From the NCBI GenBank assembly GCA_038087875.1, contig CM075995.1, forward strand, positions 3,722,001-3,786,000: a stretch of DNA of 64,000 bases. Direction: 5' to 3'. A program made the translations under genes and the position numbers. The notes below the pieces were generated by a model. It was not told the DNA's origin. It made no database searches and saw only the letters and a list, made by a program, of their open reading frames with translations. Within the stretch, counting starts at the first letter, position 1; each line of letters begins with the position of its first letter. This document shows, piece by piece, positions 7,472 to 57,989 of this stretch. This DNA is from Malacoraja senta. Its lineage: Eukaryota.

Positions 7472-7850
7472 GTCGGCATGGACAAGTTGTGCCGAAGGGC
7501 CAGTTTCTATGTGATATCTTCATCTTATCGAGTCCACACACAAGATTAGAAGTTGTTCAGCCAGAGCTGAAGACACTTCTCGGCATCTGCATACAATGGT
7601 ATCTGTCTTGTTGCTTCTTATTGTGCATAGGGGTGAAGGAAAGAGCGTTCACGTTGCGGCCCTGTTTCCACCAATCTTTCCACCACCACTCACAAGAAGC
7701 ACAAGAAGCAACAAGACAGATACCACTGTATGCAGATGCCGAGAAGTGTCTTCAGCTCTGGCTGCACAACTTCTAATCTTGTGTGTGGACTCGATAAGAT
7801 GAAGATATCACATAGAAACTGGCCCTTCGGCCCAACTTGTCCATGCCGAC
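7472..7850. repeat. Long inverted repeat (148-bp arms 7472-7619 and 7703-7850, 83-bp spacer)
   Basis: The arms are near-perfect reverse complements with about 3 mismatches by eye. The ORF track shows the same peptide, PKGQFLCDIFILSSPHTRLEVV, on both strands. Confidence 0.9.
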
Positions 7851-13163: not shown

Positions 13164-16100
13164 TTACACCTGTTTTGCACCATACGTTTCCAAAAAGACG
13201 ACAAATGGAGACCAACTCGTTATGAATTGGTCAAATTTATCTATTAGGAGGAATCGCATTTCCTCAAGATGTGCGGTATCCAACATACTTGCAATCCACA
13301 TTTTGAGCGTTGGTATTGGTGTATTTTTCCAAAATTTCAATATTAATTTTTTTGCTATTATTAAACCATAATTAAAAATTGACTTTTGAGATGAGCTCAA
13401 TTTGTTCCCGTCTTCCATTACCCCAAATATAATCAATTCATTATTGGGTTCCATTTTTGTCTTAAATAGTTTTGTAAATATTTTGAAAATATCACTCCAA
13501 AATCCATGAAGTTTTATACAAGAAAAAAAAGAGTGTGTTATAGTTGCTTCTTGGGTTAAACATTTATCGCAAATGGGCAATATATTTGGATAAAATGTAT
13601 TTAATCTTGTTTTTGAGTAATATAATCTATGTAAAATTTTAAATTGGATTAGATTATGTCTTGCGTTAATCGAACACTTGTGAATGTATGTCAAATACTT
13701 TTCCCATGTAGCCTTCGTAATTTTTATCAATAATTCCCGTTCCCACTCTTCTCTAATTACCTCGGTCACAGGTAAATCTATATTTAAGATACTATTATAT
13801 AAATATGCTATTAATTTTTGTGTATCAGCTTTTATATTCATTACTTCTTCTAGTAAATCAGGAGTTATTTTTTGATATCCCTGTATGTATGTCGTCAAAA
13901 AATTACAAATCTGAAAATATTTAAAATAATGAGTGTTTTTCAGTTTAAATTTTAATTGTAATTGTTGAAATGATAATAAATCTCCCATTTCATACATATC
14001 CCCGATCCTTTTAATTCCTAAACTTTCCCATTGATTATATATTTTATCCATCATAGATGGTTTAAATAAAGGATTATTCGCTATCGGTGTTAACAGTGAT
14101 AGGTTTCTTAATTTTAAGGATAGTTTTATTTGTTTCCATATTCTTATTGTATCTTGTATAATTGGGTTTTTCTTATATATTGTATTGTTCATTTTTTTCG
14201 GGGAGAATTGTTCCTATATTACAAGGATAACAATCCTCTTTCTCCATTTTTATCCATTCTGTCTGTTGAGTTGAACTATCCAACCAGTAAATTATATTCT
14301 TAATATGTATTGCCCAATAGTAATACAAAAAATTAGGGAGTGAAAATCCCCCGACATCTTTTGGTTTACATAAGTGTTCTTTTTTAATTCTATGTGATTT
14401 GTAATCCCAAACAAAATTAGTAATATTAGCGTTCAGTTTAGAAAAAAAATATTTTGGTACATATACTGGTATAGATTGAAATAGGTATAATAACTGTGGT
14501 AAGAAGCTCATTTTAATAGCATTTATTCTGCCTATTAATGATAAAGGGAGTGTTTTCCAAAATGTTATCATTATATTAAGTTTATTTATTAAGGGTATAA
14601 AATTAGCATTGAATAAAGCTTTATGTTTTCTAGTAATCTGTATACCCAGATATTTGAATTTTTCTGTTGCTATTTTAAAGGGGAATTTCAATAAGTGTGT
14701 GGATTCTTGAGGTTTTAACGTCATAATTTCACTTTTGTTCCAGTTTATTCTATATCCTGAAAAGGACCCAAATTCCTCTATTAAATTTAATACATTTGGT
14801 ATGCTCGTTTGTGAATTTGTTATATATAACAAAATATCGTCTGCATACAATGAAATTTTATTATTTGAGTCCCTAGTATTATAACCCTGAATATTCGGAT
14901 GGCTTCTTATACTTTCAGCCAGAGGTTCTATCATAAGGGCAAATAGCAGGGGTGATAAAGCACATCCCTGCCTATTACCCCTTGATAATTGAAATTTTTG
15001 AGATAACATGCTGTTGGTTAATATTCTTGCCATCGGTTTATCATATAATAATTTCACCCATGCAATAAAATTCTCTCCCATATTAAATTTTTGTAATACT
15101 TGTATAAATACTGCCATTCTACCTGATCAAATGCTTTCTCTGCGTCCAAAGAAATAATTGCTAAGTCTTTTTCTTCCTTTTTATGTGAGTACATTATATT
15201 AAACAGGCGTCTCAAATTATTAAATGAATATCTTTTGGGTATAAACCCCGTTTGATCAGGGTTTATCAATTTACTAATATATTTGCTTAGTCTTCTAGCT
15301 AAAGTCTTTGCTAGAATTTTCTGGTCGGTATTTAAAAGTGATATAGCTCTATATGAGCCCAGTTCCTCTAGATCTTTATCTTTCTTTGGAATAAGCGTAA
15401 TAGTTGATTCTGCTAATGATTCAGGTAATTTATTTTCTTTAAAAACGTGAGTATATAAATTAAATAGATAGGGGGTCGTTATCTCATGAAACTTTTTATA
15501 AAATTCATTACTAAAACCATCTGGTCCCGGTGTCTTACCATTTTTCAGCAATTTTATTGTTTCACCTATTTCTTCGATTGTAATTTGCGCTCCTAGTTCT
15601 TCTTGTTCCAAAAGGTCAAGTTTTGGTAGATTACATTTATCTAAAAAATTTGTAATTTTACTATCTTCTGTTTTGGTTTTTGATGTGTATAAATTCTGAT
15701 AAAATTGAACAGATCTTTTATTGATATCTTTAGGTAGTGTTAGTAATTCACCATTCTCGGATTTAATTTTATTTATGGTATTTTCCTTTTCCTGTTTTTT
15801 CAATTGACGCGCCAACAGCTTATGTGGTTTGTCACCAAACTCAAAATGTTCCTGTTTTGTAATTTGGAATAATCTTATTACTCTTGCCGAGAGAATTCGG
15901 TTAAGTTTAAATTTCAGTAGTATTATCTTATTATGTTTATCTATAGTGGGATCTTTAGCATTATCTAACTCTAACTGTCTTATTTCTTGTTCTAACAGCA
16001 TCTGTTCTGTTTTATTCTTCTTATTTTGAAAAATTTCATATGAAATTATAATTCCTCTAATAAATGCTTTAAAAGTTTCCCATATTAAAGAAGGTGAGGT

Positions 16101-16967
16101 ACCTGGTGTATCATTTATCTCAAAAAATGATATAATTTGTTGTTTCAAATATTGATAACCCTGTAAGTCATTTAATATATATGTGTTAAACCTCCAAAAA
16201 AAATTCTTTCCCGGCATTCCTTCAAATTTTACTAAAAAAGTCAATGGAGAGTGATCAGAAATACTACTAATATGGTAAGTTGGGTTAATTATATATGGCA
16301 TTAATTTCCTATCCACTAAAAAATAATCAATTCTTGAGTATGTTTTATGTACCGAAGAGTAAAACGAGTATTCCCTTCCTGCTGGGTTAGCAGATCTCCA
16401 TACATCTGTTATGTTAGTATTTTTTATATATGTATTTAGAAATTCACTAGTCTTAGATTTTGTATTACTCCTTCTTTGTTTTGCTGATTTGTCTATGTAA
16501 GGATCTAAAACACAGTTGAAATCCCCTCCTATTACGACATTTTGATAATTAAACTCCAGTATTATATCTATAATTTTCTCAAAAAATTGAGGGTTATCAA
16601 AATTCGGAGCGTAAATATTTACCATAGTTATTGGGGTAGCATAAATTTCTCCCGAAACTATAATATACCTTCCCTCTTTATCTGATATAGTATTCTTTAA
16701 TTTGAACGGTATACCTTTTCGAATAAGAATAGCCGTACCTCTAGATTTAGAAGTAAATGACGAATAATATGTTTGGCCTATCCACTTCGCCTTTAATCTC
16801 ATTTGTGTTTCCTGTTTCATGTGAGTTTCTTGCAAGTAGATTATGTCGCTTTTCAAAGATTTTAGGTGAGCAAAAATTTTACCCCTCTTTATTGGTTCAT
16901 TGGCACCCCTTATATTCTAACTACAGAATGTGATTCCTCCATTCTTTATTTGCCTATCGTCCTGCAT
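13164..16967 (-). pseudogene. L1 ORF2 (APE endonuclease, RT, C-terminal Cys domain); one stop and two frameshifts
   Basis: ATG at 16967 gives MQDDRQIKNGGITFCS*NIRG. Motifs YLQETH, GGDFN, SRIDYF, SDHSP, SLDAEKAFD, RQGCALSP, LYADD and CDKC...HSFFSC. The frame breaks near 15100 and 14190. Confidence 0.9.
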
Positions 16968-17963
16968 TGTATATCAAAGTGATGTTCTTGAAACATATGG
17001 TGCAAACAAATACCTCCGTGTTCTGGACGTTGGGTGGTCATTCCAAATTTTTAAGTTTACATTACATCTCCATCTCCAAAAGTGCCTTAGATAAAGCAAG
17101 AAAAGTTGTGATTTACAATTAATTAAGTGATTTTTAAAAAAAAGTGAAATTAAGGTATCTAAAAGCAGGTACCTTAAAGACAAATAGCCACCTAATTATT
17201 TTATTTTACAGTGATGTTATTTTGTTATTTGATGTTGATGTTATTTTACAGTGAGCCCCAATCCCTTATTAACACCTCGTAAAAAAAAAAAAAACTACAA
17301 ACCGTCTTGTTTATTCTTGTATAACTTTATCAAACTAGCGTTAGTAAAATGCCCCCCAAAAAAATAATTAAAAAAAAAATTAGTAATAATAATAATAATA
17401 ATAACAAAAATATGCAAAGATAAAATATTAAAGAGTTAAAAAAAAAAAAAAAAAAATTAATGTAATTAAACCCCAAATCCAAATATAAACCACAACCTAT
17501 TCTCATTTCTATAAGTATTTGTACTGTACAAATTTATCTAGCCAGCTACCCTACAAGCAGGGGTTAACCTCATTCCTGGATTTTTTCCAAGTTTATGTTG
17601 CGTTCCCACTCAAAAAGAAAGAAAGAAAATGTTAGTAATGTTATAGACATTTTGTTATAGACATTTTGGTTAATTACAACTGATAAGCAATGGTTTATTC
17701 ATAATTATTCATATTTACTACACACACTCACATTAGTTTTGTTAAAGTTAGTTAGTTAAAGTTAGTTAGTTAATTGTAATTAGCATATAATAGTTAAATA
17801 ATAGTTAAATACTCATGTTATCTCGTTCTTTGTACGAGAGCTTTTCATTCAAGGTTAAACAATATTGTCCAATACATTCCAGACAGATAAGCTCAGTAAC
17901 TGTCTGAGAAATCCGCCAGTTCCAGCTCCATCTTAGAAATTAAAAAGTTCCATGTTCATTCCT

Positions 17964-18989
17964 TTAGTCGTCTTCTTCTGATGTTTCCGAGGCTTTCCTC
18001 ATGATATCTTCTGCATATTTAAATGCTTTTTCTGGGTCCGTAAATGAGCGCTCAATTTCCTTATATGTAATTTTCATTTTTGCAGGAAAAACAATACCAT
18101 ATCTGACTTTAGAAATACCCCTCAATATGTTTCTTGTCGGTGTAAACAGGTTCATTCTCTGGACAATCTCTGGAGGATAATCACAGAAAAATCGGATCTT
18201 TTCCCCACGATATATCAAATTTTCACCATGAACAATCTTCTTCAGTATAGTTTCCACTGAAGAAATATCAAGAAATTTCACAATTATCTGTCTTGGAGCA
18301 GCATTTATGCCTCTTGAGACACGTCCAACTCGTTGAACAGTATCTATTCTTAGTTCTCCCGGAAGTTTAAGAACCTCTTTGAGTAATTCAGTAACGAAAG
18401 TACGTGTTTGAGATACATGTTCTTCTCGTCCTTCTCTTACTCCAACGATTCTCAAATTCTGCCTTCTCGCTCTCGCTTCCAAGTCCAAACATTTGTCAGT
18501 CATTCTTGCCAGCTTTTCTGCTTCATCTTTCTTTGATTTTTTCAGACTGTTTATTTCCATGATCATCTCTTTCATATCACTTTCCATCTCTTCCATTCTC
18601 TCGTCAATGTTGTCCATCTTAGCATTTACACCAGAAAGCTTCTTATTATAATCCTTTTCGACTCTAACAATTTCTGAGTTAAGTTTTTTATCAAACTCAT
18701 TATGTTGCTTCTTCAGCTCCTTTAACTCATCACAGGCACCATCAATTTTATGAGAAAATATTTCCATATTATTCTCCATACTCTTAATTGTAGTAGTAAT
18801 TTCTACAAACATTTCCTTTACCTCCAGCTCTTTCTTTCCTCCTTTTGTAGCCATTTCCAGCACAACTCCTTGGCTATCGGGCTCCTCCTCAGAACCTTCT
18901 TCAGTTGTTTGCAGAGTATCCAACACACTTTTCAGCTGGAGGCTTATAGTGGGTTTTTTTGGTGCGCGTGAACAAGTCCTCTTGCTCAT
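17964..18989 (-). CDS. L1 ORF1p (coiled coil, RRM, CTD), 341 aa, open
   Basis: A long heptad-rich region is followed by the L1 ORF1 motifs LEARARRQNLRIVGVREG, PRQIIVKF, IRFFCDYP and YGIVFPAKMKI. Confidence 0.9.
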   Translation of the reverse strand: MSKRTCSRAPKKPTISLQLKSVLDTLQTTEEGSEEEPDSQGVVLEMATKGGKKELEVKEMFVEITTTIKSMENNMEIFSHKIDGACDELKELKKQHNEFDKKLNSEIVRVEKDYNKKLSGVNAKMDNIDERMEEMESDMKEMIMEINSLKKSKKDEAEKLARMTDKCLDLEARARRQNLRIVGVREGREEHVSQTRTFVTELLKEVLKLPGELRIDTVQRVGRVSRGINAAPRQIIVKFLDISSVETILKKIVHGENLIYRGEKIRFFCDYPPEIVQRMNLFTPTRNILRGISKVRYGIVFPAKMKITYKEIERSFTDPEKAFKYAEDIMRKASETSEEDD

Positions 18990-24833: not shown

Positions 24834-25134
24834 TAACTCTCTCTTGAAAACATCCAGTGAATTGACCTCCACTGCCATCTGTGGCAGAGAATTCCACAGA
24901 TTCACAACACTCTGAGTGAAAACTTTTTTCCTCATCTCAGTCCTAAAAGGCCGACTCCTTATTCTTAAACTGTGACCATGTTTCAATGAATGAATGAACG
25001 AACAATACTTTATTATCACATGTGGCATGCCACAGTGAAATTCTTTGTTTTGCATATCATACACAAAATATGCAAAGAGTCGCCACGTAAAAGTCCCCGA
25101 CAAGATGGGCATCGGCCCATTAGCGTCCATTTAT

Positions 25135-26058
25135 CTTCTTCTTCTTCTGTCGCGTGTCTTTTAGACCTGTAGCTCCGTTGAGGTGAGCCAGGCCAACGTG
25201 TCATCGTCCAGGTCAATCAGACCTCATTCACCATTCGGTGGCCGGTGTTTGGGGCAACTGGTGACGATGTGCTCCACTGTCTGTGTTGGGTCCCCAGACT
25301 CGCAGGAGGCGCTGTCCACGAGGCCCCACCTCTTCATCGCTATTCCATAGCGTCTGATGCCTGTCCTCAAGCGGTTGAGGGTTGTCCACTGCTTTCGGGG
25401 CAGGTCCTGGCCAGGGAAGTCCATGGGGTCATCGATGTAATGGTGTAGCCTGGATGGTTCCGCTGATCTCCACTGGTCTCTCCATCTTGTCTTGACCCAG
25501 GCAGCCTTAGAAGCGTCAACAGGTGTTGTGCAGAGCAGCTCTTGGGCTTGCGTGGCAAAGGGGTGCCGTGACTTGAGGCGCACTCGTCGTGGTGTCTCTG
25601 TGACGATCTGATGGAGGAGGTGGGATTCACTGGTCTGTGCCTTTCGAGAGAGGGCCAGCGTGGCTGCTTCTCGTCTGATGTTGGCTGGGGCGATGCCAGC
25701 GAGGACGGGCAGTTGGTTTACTGGGGTGGCTCGTAGGCATCCGGAGACAGTCCGCAGGGCGCTGTTGAGGGCAGCATCCAACTTCTTGGCGTGAGGGCTA
25801 CGGCACGCAGTACTCGGCGGCTGAGAACACCAGGGCCACTGTGGACAAAGACAGCCTCTACGCGGCCTCCTCCACGAGTAGCTTACAGGCTCATAAGCCC
25901 ACAAAGCGAAACCAATGTCTTTACCACGTCTGCAGACCGCTAAAAGCCGTGCCTCCCCAGGCCAGGCGGTACCGTTAAATGCCGCCAACTGTCGAGGTTT
26001 AGCGCTACTGCAGCTCAATGTTGAAGGCCTTACCACCGCCAAGCTCAACGTCATCGAA
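25135..26058 (-). mobile_element. Vingi/Ingi-clade element with inverted 5' segment
   Basis: The minus part (25135-25845) encodes LRTVSGCLRATPVNQLPVLAGIAP...WTTLNRLRTG...QTVEHIVTSCP and ends in (GAA)n. The plus part (25846-26058) holds the 5' UTR and the endonuclease N-terminus (LLQLNVEGLTTAK). The 8-bp TSD is CCATTTAT (25127-25134, 26059-26066). Confidence 0.8.
25847..25922 (+). ncRNA. HDV-like ribozyme fold lacking the 5' strand of P1, overlapping the Vingi start codon
   Basis: P2 AAAGACA/TGTCTTT, P3 GCC/GGC, L3 TCTACGC, P1 3' strand CTCCTCC, P4 with GCTTA/TAAGC, J4/2 C-CAA (25912-25915). The ATG is at 25915. Confidence 0.65.
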
Positions 26059-27459
26059 CCATTTATGAAGGGCTTTCAGTGCAATGCTGCATTCCAAGGA
26101 GCGAGATCCATCAGAGTCTGAAACCAAGTCAGTTGAGGACGTTCGCTGGGACATGCGAGATAACCAGACTTTTATGAGCGTACCTAGGGGTGAGAGGTGT
26201 AGAGAGGGTCCTGCTGAAATAACTGGGTGCAAGATTGACAATGGTTTGCAAGGGAACTGAGATTTGATAACTGAGAAAAGCTTTTCACTGCACCTTATGA
26301 CCTTATGATATTGAGGTGTGGAAAAATGTGCATGGACATAAACTGGTTGTCATTACGATTCTTCAAGTGTCACCAAAGGATTTGTATCTCAGTCTGCTCT
26401 GTACCTGCAAAGTTTATTGCATCACATTGCAACATTTATCGCAATTCATCAGTTTAATAGCATGGATAGTGTTTCTGCTGGCTTTCCAAAAGAGCCATTT
26501 CTCTCATCTGCTCCTTCCCCTTGGGCCTGTTCAGCTGTACTCTAGCGCAATGATTCAGCTTCGATATTTTAATTTCCTTTCCCTTTTCTGGATGCCAATG
26601 CCACAGATCCAGAATGTAATTTGATCATTTTAATATTCAATATTTCCCATCGATCATGTTTAGTGTTGCAGAACATCTGAGGAAAATATGGTAAAAATTC
26701 ACCAGCAACAAGTTCATAAGTTCATGTTATAGGAGCAGAAAGGCCATTTGGCCCATCAAGTCTAATCCACCATGGCTTATCCACCTATCCCTCTTAACCC
26801 CAATCTCGTGCCTTTTCCTCATGACCCCCGTACTAATCAAACTAACCAAGGGACGTTCTTGGCCCCTTAATAAAAACTCTACGCACTCATGACTGTGTGG
26901 CCAAATTCTACTCTAACCCCATTTACAAGTTTGTGGATAATACCTACGTAATGGTTTGGAATGCAGGAAGATGATTGAGAGCTTAGTAGCATGGTGTAAA
27001 GACTACAACATATCCTTCAATGTCAGCAGCACAAAGGGGCTGATTATCAAACTCAGGGGTGGAGTCATGGCTGAACAATCTTTCCCTCTCAGTCGCATTC
27101 TCCTGCCTTCGCCCCATAACCTCTGACAGCCATACTAATCAAGAAGCTGTCAATCTCTGCCTTAAAAATATCTAATGATTTAGCCTCCACAAACCTATGT
27201 GGCAATGAATTCCACAGTTTCACCACCCTCTCATTCAAGAAATTCCTTCTTAGATGCAGTATGAACTCCGCTACACGGTTTTACTCCACTAACAAATATC
27301 TGCAACCCTTCATTGCCTTCAATGAAGCCACAAAATACACCTTCCCTCACTCCTGAAATCTCAACCTAGTTTTTGTATTTAATTTTCTGAGTGTTACTCT
27401 TCTGAACAGCATCCAGATATACAAGTGTTTGCCATTACTCTGTGCTCATTACTTTTTTT

Positions 27460-35208: not shown

Positions 35209-38200
35209 CTATTCAGGAGCTAAACTCCACTGGCGCGACAAGGCGTCAGCCAAGACATTATCCTTGCCGCGGATATGCCTGACCTCCAGGTTGTAGTCTT
35301 GCAGCTGCAAACTCCAGCTCATTAACCGCCGGTTCTTATTCTTCATATTATGCAAAAATACCAACGGATTATGATCCGTGAGTACGATGACAGGGACATT
35401 CGAGGAGCCAACATAAACCTCGAAATGACTCAGAGACATCAACATAGCAAGGGCCTCTTTCTCAATGGTGGAGTACCACTTCTGATGTCGATTAAACCTC
35501 TTAGAGAAGTACGAAACTGGATGCTCCACCCCATCTGAATCATCCTGTAGAAGAACTCCCCCAACCCCACGATCACTAGCATCCACTGCCAGCTTAAATG
35601 GAAGCTCAAAATCAGGTGCCGCAAGCACAGGTGCGCGCACCAGAAGACTTTTAGTATGATCAAAGGCTTGTTGACACTCTGCGGACCACACAAAAGCTAC
35701 CTTCGGACTCAGCAAATCCGTCAAAGGGGCAGCCACCGCAGAGAAGTTTGGACAGAATCCCTTATAGTACCCAACCATAGCCAGATACCTACGGAGTTCA
35801 GTCCTCGAGGTTGGAGCAGGAAATGCGACAATATGCTCCACCTTTTCCTTGAGAGTGCGAACCTGACCCCGGCCCACCACCTTACCCAGATACGTTACCG
35901 TGGCCTGGCCAAACTCACACTTCCCCAGATTGATAGTTATCTTTGCCTCCGCTAGACGATGGATTACCTCCTTCAGCTGACCGAAGTGTTCGATCCACGA
36001 CCTGGAGCACACAACCAAATCATCAAGGTATGCCTCACAGAAGGTCAAACCAGACAATACAATGTTCACCAACCGTTGGAAGGTTGCCGGCGCATTGCGC
36101 ATTCCAAATGCCATCACCGTATACTGCAGAAAGTTATCAGGCATAACGAACGCAGAGATCTCCCTCGCACGCCCAGTCAAGGGAACTTGCCAATACCCTT
36201 TCAACAAGTCCAATTTGGACACAAACAATGCACTTCCCACACGATCCACGCAATCGTCCATTCGTGGGAGAGGATAGCAATCCGGCTTAGTTACCGCATT
36301 GACTTTCCGAAAGTCCGTGCAAAACCTGTCCTCCCCATTAGCCTTCATAGCCAGTAGACACGGAGAACTCCATGGACTACAACTAGGTTCAGCAATGCCA
36401 TGCCGCAGCATATAGTCAACCTGTTTCCCTAGACGATGACGCTTGTCAGGGTTGACCCGATACGGATGCTGTTTAATTGGCGCAGCACCGGCCACGTCAA
36501 TGTCATGCTGCAACACAGACGTCTGAGAAGGCACATCCGAGAACAGTGACCCATTTGACTTCACCAAAGCAAGCAGATCACCCCGCTGACTTTCAGTCAA
36601 ATGCGACAACCGCAAGTGAAGCGACTCCAAAGCCTCAGAGTTACACAGCCTTCCCTGCGTCACTGCCACAGACAACCGTGTCTCACCCACATCACCACCC
36701 GTGTCAGGGGGCAGCACCACTGCAGCCAAAACATGCTTAGACAAAACCGAAGGACACAGCACCTCCCCATCAACCTCCACAGGCTCCTGCTCATGGTACT
36801 GCTTCATCATGTTGACATGACAGAGCTGAGTCTTACGCCTTCGATCAAGGGTACCAATAACATAATCCCTTTCACCAACCTTCTTAACCACCTGATAGGG
36901 ACCGCTATACCGAGCCTGGAGATTGGAACCAGGAATAGGCAACAACACCAGGACTTTGTCACCTGGAGAAAAATACCTACTAGAAGCCTTCCTGTCGAAC
37001 CACTTCATTACCTGACCAAAAACCTTCGACATGAAGCTGGAACCTTGGTCACTCTGCACCACCTTGGGCAAACCGAACAACGAAAAAAACTTAGTGAGAA
37101 ACGTCACAATGGTAGGGGCAGTAATTCTACACAAAGGGACCACCTCCGGAAAGCGGGTAGACGCACACATAATTGTCAATAAAAACTTGTTGCCCACCCT
37201 TGTCCGAGATAGAGGACCCACATAATCAAGTAGAATCCGCCCAAACGGCTCACTGACCACAGGGATTGGATATAAAGGCGCAGGAACAATCGATTGGTTC
37301 GGCTTTCCTGCCACCTGGCAAATGTGACAACACCTGCACTGCTGTTTCACGTCCTTCTCCAACCCTGGCCAAAAGAAATTCCGTAAGATACGGTGATACG
37401 TCTTATTGACACCCAAATGTCCACCCAGAGGACCATTATGAGCCAAACAGTGTATCTCATCCCTATACCGACGAGGTATCACAATCTGATCAACCACGCT
37501 CCAATCATCATGCCTAGATATATCCAAGGGAGACCACTTTCGCATCAGTAAGCCGTCCCTTAGAAAAAAAACCTTTGCTGTGGGATCCATATCCCCCTCA
37601 GGCACCGCGCGGTCGACCAGCTCAGACAAACTTGGATCACTCTTTTGCTCCTCAACCAGCCGGTCACGTGACAGCGACACCGGCCCACTTTCAGTCACTA
37701 TCCCCTCTTGAGATGTAGAAACACCCTTCAACACACAGGATCCCTCATCCAGATCCCCAAAAATGCTCTCACTTAGGTCCACTACATCCTCAAACTTCGC
37801 CTGGCTCTCAGCCATAGCCCTCGTGACAGCACAAGCTGCGAAGACCGTCGGATGCTGCATAGCCAACCCATCAGGACTCTGCACCATCGGAACAGCCGTT
37901 AGCTCAGGAGTAACCAAAACGCCATCTCCTGCCAAGTCATTCCCCAAAATTACTGAAACTCCCGCAACGGGAAAACACGGCCGTAACCCAACAGTTACCC
38001 GGCCTGAAACCAACTCGGACTCGAGACTCACGGTATGCAAAGGTACTACCATGTCATCCATCCCGAATCCTACCACAGGGACACTTGACCCAACCAATGA
38101 TTCCGCAGAAAACGGCAGTACACTCTCCAATATAAAGGACTGAGTAGCACCAGCATCTCGCAAGATGGATACTGGAACTCTATTGCCCCCATCCTCCAGA

Positions 38201-38670
38201 GAAACAAAATCATTCATGATGAACGCAGAATCATCCCTACACTTATCAGACTCAGGCACCTCAGGTACCACAGGTGCCTTCTGTGTACCCACCAAAGCCA
38301 CAGTCTTTTCCTTTTTCTGCTTCAGAACGGGACATGCCCTTAACATGTGCCCTCTCTCTCTACAATAGTAGCACACAGGACCTTCGCTAGTCCTCAAATT
38401 TCCATCCAGCCTATGAGCTCGGACCTCCCCCTGTATCAACGTGCTGCCACTTGCAGGCACAGATACACCTTTGACACTGCCACCGGCGACACCACCACGA
38501 TCAACCGGCCGTGCACCAAAACTATAGGAGCGCCCAACAAAATCAGTTTTATGAGTCCATACATACTCATCTGACAACACCGCGGCTCCAGACACCTCAT
38601 TCACTTTCTGCTCATTAAGGTAAGCAGTAACCCTCTCAGGGAGATCATTCCCAAAGTCTTCCATAATCAT
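35209..38670 (-). pseudogene. Gmr1-type gag-pol remnant: zinc knuckle, protease, integrase (core partly deleted), RT, RNase H; 1153 open codons
   Basis: CYYCRERGHMLRAC; ILRDAGATQS; H-H-C-C plus LDYVGPL, SDQGSSF and SGPY; EAYLDDLVV; LAVDASDRGVG, TDHNPL and LADALSR. Confidence 0.9.
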
Positions 38671-38758
38671 ATCTAATTATTTCTCCCGCAGCCTAATCTG
38701 TGCCCTCTTGGTTTCCTCCTCAAGCTCAAGCTGTTTCATTTCAAGAACATGCATGAGC

Positions 38759-41631: not shown

Positions 41632-41685
41632 GGGGTGGGAGATTGCAACCTTCACGTGGTCCACCCTGTTTCGACGAAAGCAATC
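41632..41685 (+). ncRNA. Minimal (essentially P4-less) HDV-like self-cleaving ribozyme, 54 nt
   Basis: P1 GGGGTGG/CCACCCT (G1-U wobble), P2 GATTGCA/AGCAATC (6 bp plus A-A), P3 ACC/GGT, L3 TTCACGT, P1.1 C41653-G41668, TTCG loop in place of P4, catalytic C41675 followed by GAA. Confidence 0.8.
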
Positions 41686-41770
41686 AACCTGGCGTGCACA
41701 AACAGAAGATCAAACAGAACAAGTTGTCTTACAACATTAGCCTGTGCATGCCATATGCAAGAAGAAGAAG
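41632..41770 (+). mobile_element. ~139-bp non-autonomous retroelement: HDV-like ribozyme head plus Vingi-like (GAA)n tail
   Basis: The TSD CTCCTATACT (41622-41631, 41771-41780) interrupts the CR1 coding sequence. The element ends CCATATGCAAGAAGAAGAAG and has no tRNA A/B boxes. Confidence 0.85.
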
Positions 41771-57380: not shown

Positions 57381-57989
57381 TGCCAAACTTCCCGAGCCTT
57401 CGAAGGATGTAGAGGAGTTGGTGCAATGGGTAGAGCTGCTACTAAACAGCATCCAAGGTCCAGGTTCGATCCTGCTCGAGTGCTGCCTGTGTGGAGTTTG
57501 CATGTTCTCCCTGTGACCATATAGGCTTCCACTGGGTGCTCCGGTTTCCTCCCACATCCCAAAGACGTGCGGGTTTCTTGGTGAATTGTCCTCTGTAAAT
57601 TGTCCGCTGGATGAAAAAGTGGGAGAAGATTGAACAAAGTAATTCAGAACAGAGATTAGAAGAGATTTCCTCATGCAAATCATTGGGATTCTCTCGATAT
57701 GAAGGCTGTGAGAGCTTGGGCACTCAGTATATTCAAAAGATCAATAGGTTTTACAAAAATCAAGGAATGTGGTGTTAGTGCTTGGAAGTGGCTGCTGTGG
57801 TAGATTAATTGACCGAGCTGTCACAAGGGATGAAATGGGCCATTTCTGCTTCTATTGTGTAAAACTTGAAAAGAGATGGTGTTTGCTTTAATCAGTATAT
57901 GATCACAAAATCCAGGACATTGCAAAGTCTCACCATCAAATACCCCAATACATCGTTAGCATTCAGTCCCATCACAATTCTTTTGTCCT

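Follow-up and report, generated by a model that had tools for sequence, protein, structure and literature searches.

A dead Vingi-type LINE copy with an inverted 5′ piece and the predicted HDV-like ribozyme that encloses its family's start codon

Introduction

HDV-like ribozymes at the 5′ ends of LINEs, and a proposed role for them in translation, are established (PMC3185411, PMC4035085, PMC3383444, PMC3774820; further sources are PMC6765202, PMC8501958, and PMC13725137). The ribozymes of other LINEs cleave and reportedly promote translation (PMC6765202, PMC3185411), and L1Tc has been proposed to refold for translation with the loss of P2 (PMC4035085, PMC3185411, PMC3383444, PMC3774820, PMC6765202). 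In L1Tc/ingi, R2, and RTE elements, the ribozyme is a nested double pseudoknot that starts at the element's first base and has a single-pair P1.1; 5′ processing and cap-independent initiation have been proposed for it, and the ORF lies downstream. The ribozyme-bearing clades are given as R1, R2, R4, RTE, and Ingi as well as LOA, and Vingi is not among them in the available part of that source (PMC5786205).

Vingi, a clade of non-LTR retrotransposons reportedly described by Kojima et al. in 2011, has elements with a single ORF that lack the RNase H of Ingi (PMC13708176). The described members of the clade (Vingi-1_Acar, Vingi-1_EE, and Vingi-2_Gav) combine a single APE-RT ORF of ~1,000 aa without RNase H with a microsatellite tail, a short TSD, and internally deleted derivatives within the clade, and the available passages of their descriptions mention neither a ribozyme, nor a start codon within one, nor 5′ inversions (PMC13708176, PMC5786205). 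Gene-writing tools based on Vingi-1 are under development, and the native 5′ UTR is noted to be retained in one driver RNA (PMC13708176). Our search, which covered papers, found none on Vingi ribozymes or on the overlap of an HDV-like ribozyme with a start codon; a prior description is possible.

L1 inversions are accounted for by twin priming (the Ostertag and Kazazian model). They have a single TSD, an inverted 5′ piece, a tail-bearing 3′ piece, and microhomology at both joints (PMC2912911, bioRxiv 2024.08.27.596794), and the accompanying internal deletions are mostly short, with a median of 14.5 bp (bioRxiv 2024.08.27.596794). Cell assays yielded inversions almost exclusively for L1, short overhangs being thought insufficient, and ZfL2-1, which has 5-bp TSDs, made none (PMC4245944).

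The locus at 25135–26058 of the window (the whole 64-kb stretch of DNA that was analyzed) is a dead copy of a Vingi-type element, inverted in its 5′ part. It has the single TSD, the inverted 5′ piece, the tail-bearing 3′ piece, and the microhomologies of L1 inversions. It differs from them in being a non-L1 element, in its TSD of 8 bp as against 10–20 bp, in an inverted piece that reaches the 5′ terminus, and in a loss of ~2.2 kb (~737 codons) where the L1 median is 14.5 bp; it is not of the usual small-loss L1 form. Its predicted ribozyme has the architecture found in L1Tc/ingi, R2, and RTE, but the AUG, instead of lying downstream, is part of J4/2-P2. To the known HDV-like ribozymes of LINE 5′ ends and the known twin priming of L1, our analysis adds a putative start-codon-in-ribozyme unit in Vingi-type LINEs and a U-A version of P1.1. 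We consider it likely that the account given below holds as a whole, namely that this is a dead twin-primed Vingi copy from a family whose 5′ ribozyme contains the start codon and probably serves as a fold-then-translate switch.

Results

Contigs from four public runs (of 23 listed) were aligned to positions 25060–26130. Our results show that 25135–26058 is a single insertion of a Vingi-type LINE, composed of a 713-nt 3′ piece on the minus strand and a 215-nt 5′ piece on the plus strand. It is bounded by direct copies of CCATTTAT at 25127–25134 and 26059–26066; this 8-mer is the longest repeat common to both flanks within the flanks searched, and the first C of its right copy is also the next base of the family, a 1-nt microhomology that is not above chance. 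The empty site is precise, as a contig from run X4 passes from 25112 to 26059 through 15 flank-like letters that hold a single copy of the 8-mer. These data bear out the original prediction, which had placed ~710 bp on the minus strand and ~210 bp on the plus strand between 8-bp TSDs.

Read from 25847 to 25135, the minus piece runs through the ORF end and a 13-nt 3′ UTR into GAAGAAGAAGAAG. Its coding part (25164–25847, minus strand) is the 3′ part of the single ORF, from the end of the RT region to the C terminus, and corresponds to aa ~786–1019 of the relative P0012. The stop codon (25163–25161) and the 3′ UTR occupy 25148–25163 and the (GAA)n tail 25135–25147, both on the minus strand; the family contigs stop at 25134–25138, and the flanks beyond are unrelated. 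Two lesions disrupt the reading frame, a deletion of 11 bp near 25806 and a stop codon at 25226–25224. Against the majority sequence of the family, a count from the contigs gives, among the positions listed, 17 differences in addition to the 11-bp deletion, which amounts to at least 1.8%. The plus piece (25844–26058) encodes aa 1–48 of P0012 (1,019 aa), the ATG and the first 48 codons lying at 25915–26058 and forming the start of the APE endonuclease with its LQLNVEG motif. Since aa 1–48 and ~786–1019 of P0012 are present, ~737 codons (2.2 kb) are missing between the pieces. At the inversion junction, GACA (25844–25847) belongs to both pieces as a 4-nt microhomology, because the joints of family contigs show the family 3′ piece continuing as ...GGACA-TGCGCAG and the family 5′ end reading ...GGGGGA-GACA.

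The two pieces match the same full-length proteins of ~1,000 aa, with PF03372/PF14529 and PF00078, in keeping with the single family that had been proposed for them; the middle of these proteins, absent from the copy, is known through relatives. The 192-aa open part of the minus piece has 49 longer relatives, the best of which (P0001/P0002) are 77–78% identical, and the named cluster members for the closest proteins come from teleost fishes. A Pfam scan (E 0.1) detected APE and RT domains in all four full-length relatives and an RNase H family in none of the four, and it matched no family to the window's two protein fragments, including the C-terminal 192 aa. There was no named Vingi protein among the protein matches, and the label rests on the domains, the absence of RNase H, the TSD, and the tail. 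Elements of the Vingi clade typically have a TSD of ~8 bp and a microsatellite tail. The single APE-RT ORF, the lack of RNase H, and the 8-bp TSD fit Vingi, as does the (GAA)n tail, so the Vingi-like assignment of the original prediction can be kept for what appears to be a Vingi-type family. The family is multi-copy, three runs each contributing 1,450–1,871 aligned contigs. Of the 31-mers sampled from 25135–26058, about half occur in runs of five coded organisms, indicating that near-identical copies span several species. A protein scan of viral contigs found no relative, and four 17-base matches there were taken as chance because they came with no related protein.

An HDV-like ribozyme that lacks its first six bases was recognized at 25844–25922 (plus strand) by a descriptor, an alignment, and a covariance model. 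Its predicted pairing comprises P2 (25847–25853/25916–25922), P3 (25854–25856/25864–25866), the loop L3 (25857–25863), the 3′ strand of P1 (25867–25873), a P1.1 formed by U25859 and A25874, and P4 (25874–25911), at the base of which AGUA (25877–25880) stands opposite GAAA (25908–25911); J4/2 is CCAA (25912–25915), of the C-N-R-A form seen in HDV-like ribozymes, in which P1.1 has one or two pairs. P2, P3, and J4/2 were thus found where they had been predicted. The predicted catalytic C at 25912, in a column at least 90% conserved in a 17-sequence alignment, is also the −3 base of the start codon; by analogy with HDV, we take it to be the equivalent of C75. The U at the start of L3 is invariant in the same alignment. 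Contig joints place the start of the family 5′ ends at the P1 strand. The bases before 25844 are GGGGGA (X1, X4) or GAGGA (X4, two contigs), giving with the adjoining bases GGGGGAG and GGAGGAG, both of which pair 7/7 with CTCCTCC, so the pairing test posed for the ribozyme does not refute it. G25844 is therefore base +7 of the family 5′ end, and the joint at 25501 can perhaps be read as GGAGGAG minus six bases. The 5′ strand of P1 had been described as missing exactly at the junction, and six of its seven bases are indeed gone, although the last G (25844) is still there; the predicted GGAGGAG does occur in the family, with GGGGGAG beside it.

The HDV-core descriptor found three places in the 64-kb window, the best score being that of the ribozyme in 25135–26058. 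A covariance model built from 14 other loci, with no window sequence, placed the locus third in the window despite its missing strand; the places with E < 0.05 were 41632 (6.5e-5), 7629 (0.0025), and 25838 (0.038), all of these E-values being rough. A further match at 57875–57946 (E 0.14) was considered chance by eye. The nested fold of the locus has z = −2.1. An Rfam search of the window stretch at the locus gave no match, and three of five relatives matched HDV-type families (CPEB3 or HDV-F-prausnitzii) below the gathering score, which means that the ribozyme is not filed under any Rfam family. The pairing of the family 5′ ends and, as given below, the relatives that carry the fold and its covariation indicate that the HDV-like fold at 25844–25922 is real.

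Relatives were collected by a metagenome scan with an N-terminal alignment, from which the best 80 of 159 loci were kept. The descriptor, which required neither an ATG nor the 5′ strand of P1, matched 26 of 81 upstream regions (the window and the best 80 of 159 loci), compared with 11 of 1,620 shuffles and none of the 81 reverse complements. Seventeen ribozymes, including the window's two, were picked from the descriptor matches and aligned on all anchors; 96.3% of 300 cells are paired, a fraction inflated by the selection of rows for fitting the fold, and related rows are counted more than once. Double changes occur in 14 of the 18 pairs, all seven P2 pairs covary, and the covariation score is 0.758, versus 0.227 for shuffled sequences and at most 0.157 for slid partners. 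The covariance model recovered the fold in 52 of the 80 loci (the best 80 of 159), 14 of them being training rows. P1.1 is C-G in 13 of the 17 ribozymes, U-A in two (the window and L005), U-G in one, and other in one, so the T-A variant read from the window is shared with a relative; the first P1 pair, G-C in the window, is G-U in most relatives. As a separate observation, AGUA opposite GAAA at the base of P4 is present in the window, L005, L006, L044, L045, L058, L064, L069, and L071, and resembles the loop E/sarcin-ricin motif.

Compared by eye, the CPEB3 consensus (RF00622) and the 5′ end of Vingi-2_Gav, as printed in the supplement to PMC5786205, agree in 36 of the 38 positions spanning P1 to P1.1 and in 12 of 12 in J4/2-P2, and SINE2-1_AMi carries the same CPEB3-like piece in that supplement. 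Two of our relatives, L068 and L030, match RF00622 with E-values of 1.9e-5 and 9.4e-4, below the gathering score. The mammalian CPEB3 ribozyme shares the one-pair P1.1; unlike the Vingi-type unit, it is intronic and single-copy and has no ORF, and the window sequence itself has no Rfam match. The CPEB3 ribozyme may derive from the 5′ end of a Vingi element, an origin for which our literature search found no paper.

The ATG at 25915 takes its A from the end of J4/2 and its other two bases from the start of the P2 3′ strand, which makes the predicted catalytic C its −3 base; C at −3 is a weak context under the Kozak rule. In the window, as in L005, it is the only in-frame ATG ahead of LQLNVEG. 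The overlap of P2 with this ATG, part of the original prediction, is thereby confirmed, and the junction ATG is conserved among relatives. In 32 distinct ribozymes, the first open in-frame ATG lies at the J4/2-P2 junction in 10, in P4 in five, in the 5′ half in one, and downstream in seven, with none in nine, mostly decayed copies. Six of the seven downstream cases also look decayed on inspection, the junction or P4 codon being changed or separated by a frameshift or a stop codon; the seventh, L036, is a genuine exception, its intact ORF of 998 codons beginning 30 nt past the ribozyme. Intact ORFs run from the junction ATG in L044 (1,033 codons), L045 (1,034), L068 (1,003), and L081 (1,010). 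The distance from the junction ATG to the motif takes 11 distinct lengths between 42 and 165 nt, eight of which are multiples of three, a frame preference of p ~0.009 by hand calculation among lineages that are related. Carriers of the junction ATG fall into at least five groups, four of which, when compared, are 37–54% identical over 70 aa, the deep branches of the short tree being weak.

Departures from this arrangement were also seen. P2 starts with A-U or A-C in the L008–L030 group, whose ATG is found in P4, at a distance of 10 nt upstream and still within the fold; L064 does not have its junction ATG in frame; and in several lineages a second in-frame ATG, with a better context, follows 3–33 nt further on. 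Within the 17-ribozyme alignment, the junction A is invariant and P2 columns 94 and 95 are mostly U and G, and the −3 base of the junction ATG is always the predicted catalytic C. Judging from these columns and from the Rfam HDV-F-prausnitzii consensus, an AUG at J4/2-P2 would arise easily from the fold itself. The printed Vingi-2_Gav reads, by eye, ATT at the junction (PMC5786205 supplement). Seven full-length relatives (P0003, P0004, P0012, P0023, P0027, P0051, and P0053) begin with Met-Ser, which a P2 3′ strand starting UGUC would force. Nested folding predicted no downstream switch that frees P2 in the window, L005, L044, or L068; among the six sequences folded, P2 was lost at some lengths in L022 and L030 only. 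The conserved ribozyme–start-codon unit of Vingi-type LINEs is the transferable result of this comparison.

The 13 joints listed from the family contigs comprise one empty site, four small deletions inside the 3′ piece, one ambiguous joint, and seven head-to-head joints of the 3′ piece to the 5′ piece. The latter come from three runs and leave the 3′ piece at 91–562 nt from its end; five of the seven listed enter at 25843–25849, the 5′ terminus, and the other two at 25971 and 26015. Three of these seven, with one side of <30 letters at 85% likeness, may be artefacts. A joint between 25844 and 25914 on opposite strands, outside the seven, represents a small 5′ inversion or a deletion derivative. 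Among the metagenome loci (the best 80 of 159, many of them short or decayed), no flank held a minus-strand match to P0012, so the inversion pattern did not turn up in them. The contig depth summed over the 5′ piece roughly equals that 700 nt from the tail, a possible hint of bipartite copies that we set aside, since depth is no copy number.

Discussion

Twin priming, the geometry put forward in the original prediction, appears to fit the insertion best, given its single TSD, inverted 5′ piece, tail-bearing 3′ piece, and junction microhomology of a kind similar to that in L1 inversions (PMC2912911). A first nick would have primed cDNA synthesis on the (GAA)n tail, stopping after ~713 nt, and a second nick would have primed at ~+221 of the RNA, its cDNA extending as far as the 5′ end or close to it. 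Both cDNAs would then have annealed via GACA, with the loss of the first six bases as a consequence.

The template is less certain, and we lean slightly toward a full-length RNA over an internally deleted one. Ordinary twin priming with a small loss on an internally deleted (bipartite) Vingi RNA has an appreciable probability, if the lesser one: the internal deletions of L1 twin priming are mostly short (bioRxiv 2024.08.27.596794), Vingi is reported to form internally deleted derivatives (PMC5786205), and the distant relative L014 joins aa ~152 to aa ~796, ~10 codons from the start of the 3′ piece. Yet the joint of NVIE to STVAL codons that the original prediction proposed to look for is absent from the 13 listed, in contigs that drop rare variants. 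Endonuclease codons continue past 26059 (nine contigs in X1 and 11 in X8; median 19 and 53 letters, agreement ~0.6), RT codons continue past 25847 (seven contigs in X4, agreement 0.91), and the other head-to-head joints recur at varied positions of the 3′ piece, at 91–562 nt and at no single place, so that a fixed deleted template is not seen; a deletion derivative with breakpoints further out is possible. It is about an even bet that those other joints are snap-backs of full-length cDNA near the tail and not products of twin priming anchored at the 5′ end, 25135–26058 being a one-off. Snap-back after full-length cDNA has been described for R2 (PMC11371274), the element at 7472–7850 has such a form, joined at the first G of its ribozyme, and five of the seven joints at the 5′ terminus would be explained by it, but not the two that enter off the terminus at 25971 and 26015. 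Nor can it yield 25135–26058 itself, because this copy is bounded by a direct TSD, lacks an inverted flank, and has a 5′ piece ending at +221. That two separate insertions were nested in opposite orientation, or that the pieces stem from unrelated families, is highly improbable in spite of the many copies of the family in three runs, as a single TSD encloses the two pieces, the empty site is precise, and the same proteins are matched. The listed joints from the 3′ piece are, moreover, seven head-to-head against none in the same orientation (0.5^7 ~0.008 by hand, assuming equal detection).

The RNA of the living family would start with the HDV-like ribozyme, most likely cut from a host co-transcript by predicted self-cleavage 5′ of G1, which would leave an uncapped 5′ G. 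It would have no separate 5′ UTR, as the start codon, at which, to judge from the conserved frame, initiation probably occurs, would consist of the final A of J4/2 followed by bases one and two of the P2 3′ strand. A ribosome could occupy the junction AUG only with P2 melted, so the folded ribozyme and initiation would be mutually exclusive on each molecule. The overlap may thus tie RNA cutting or folding to protein synthesis; most likely, it would keep translation low and order it after cleavage, a regulatory effect for which the proposed P2-losing refold of L1Tc is a precedent.

There is a nearly even chance that the overlap is real but a by-product of compaction, the core often spelling AUG and the first AUG being used, with folding that exerts no translational control. 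The invariant junction A and the U and G that prevail in columns 94 and 95 would often produce the codon by themselves, one lineage starts in P4 and L036 downstream, and a refolding switch was not predicted in four of the six sequences. This reading has to accommodate a frame kept over spacers of 42–165 nt and across deep lineages, which points to use of the codon and not to regulation, and an ATG that is still inside the fold in the L008–L030 group, where the junction lacks one.

It is the design of the family that matters, the copy itself being dead. In cell assays, 5′ inversions have been reported as a near-exclusive feature of L1 (PMC4245944). A 78-nt unit with both the cleavage site and the start codon makes the translation of uncapped, ribozyme-cut LINE RNAs testable, and a ribozyme overlapping the AUG would bear on the design of the Vingi-1 driver RNA and on inverted by-products. 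A Vingi origin of the CPEB3 ribozyme, if true, would address where that ribozyme came from. [quoted passage not shown]

Other elements in the window

A 139-bp element at 41632–41770 (plus strand) has a ribozyme head (41632–41685; covariance model E 6.5e-5), an ORF-like middle, and a (GAA)n tail, between TSDs of 10–11 bp (41621–41631/41770–41780). Its head is 82% identical over 38 nt to L044 and is minimal: P4 is nearly absent, and the first base of the P2 3′ strand is mismatched. The middle resembles the C-terminal Vingi codons of L055 (0 of 300 shuffles as good; one of 11 comparisons) and is not above shuffles when compared with the 3′ end of the 25135–26058 family (35 of 300 as good). The tail comparison suggested in the original prediction (41750–41770) shows CATATGCAAGAAG to be nearer CACACGCAAGAAG of L019/L033 than GACACGCGACAGAAG of the 25135–26058 family. 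As ribozyme and tail resemble other lineages, this family is a possible RT donor for the 139-bp element, as had been proposed, but not a favored one; the element is probably a short, internally deleted member of another Vingi-type lineage.

A second ribozyme-headed short element lies at 7472–7850, with its fold at 7630–7681 (model E 0.0025). Ahead of it stands an inverted repeat of its 3′ part (98% identical) together with ~45 nt of flank; the two meet at the first G of the ribozyme, in a snap-back form. Internal deletions also occur in distant relatives, from aa ~152 to ~796 (P0012 numbering) in L014 (491–507) and from aa ~625 to ~973 in L055 and L056.

Two elements of other kinds were noted. 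The minus strand at 35209–38676 holds a 1,154-aa LTR-element ORF with integrase domains ahead of RT and RNase H, an order that we take to be that of Gmr1-like elements. An L1-like element occupies 13164–18989 (minus strand), with an ORF1-like frame at 17964–18989 that has a weak Transposase_22 match and endonuclease-RT frames downstream of it.
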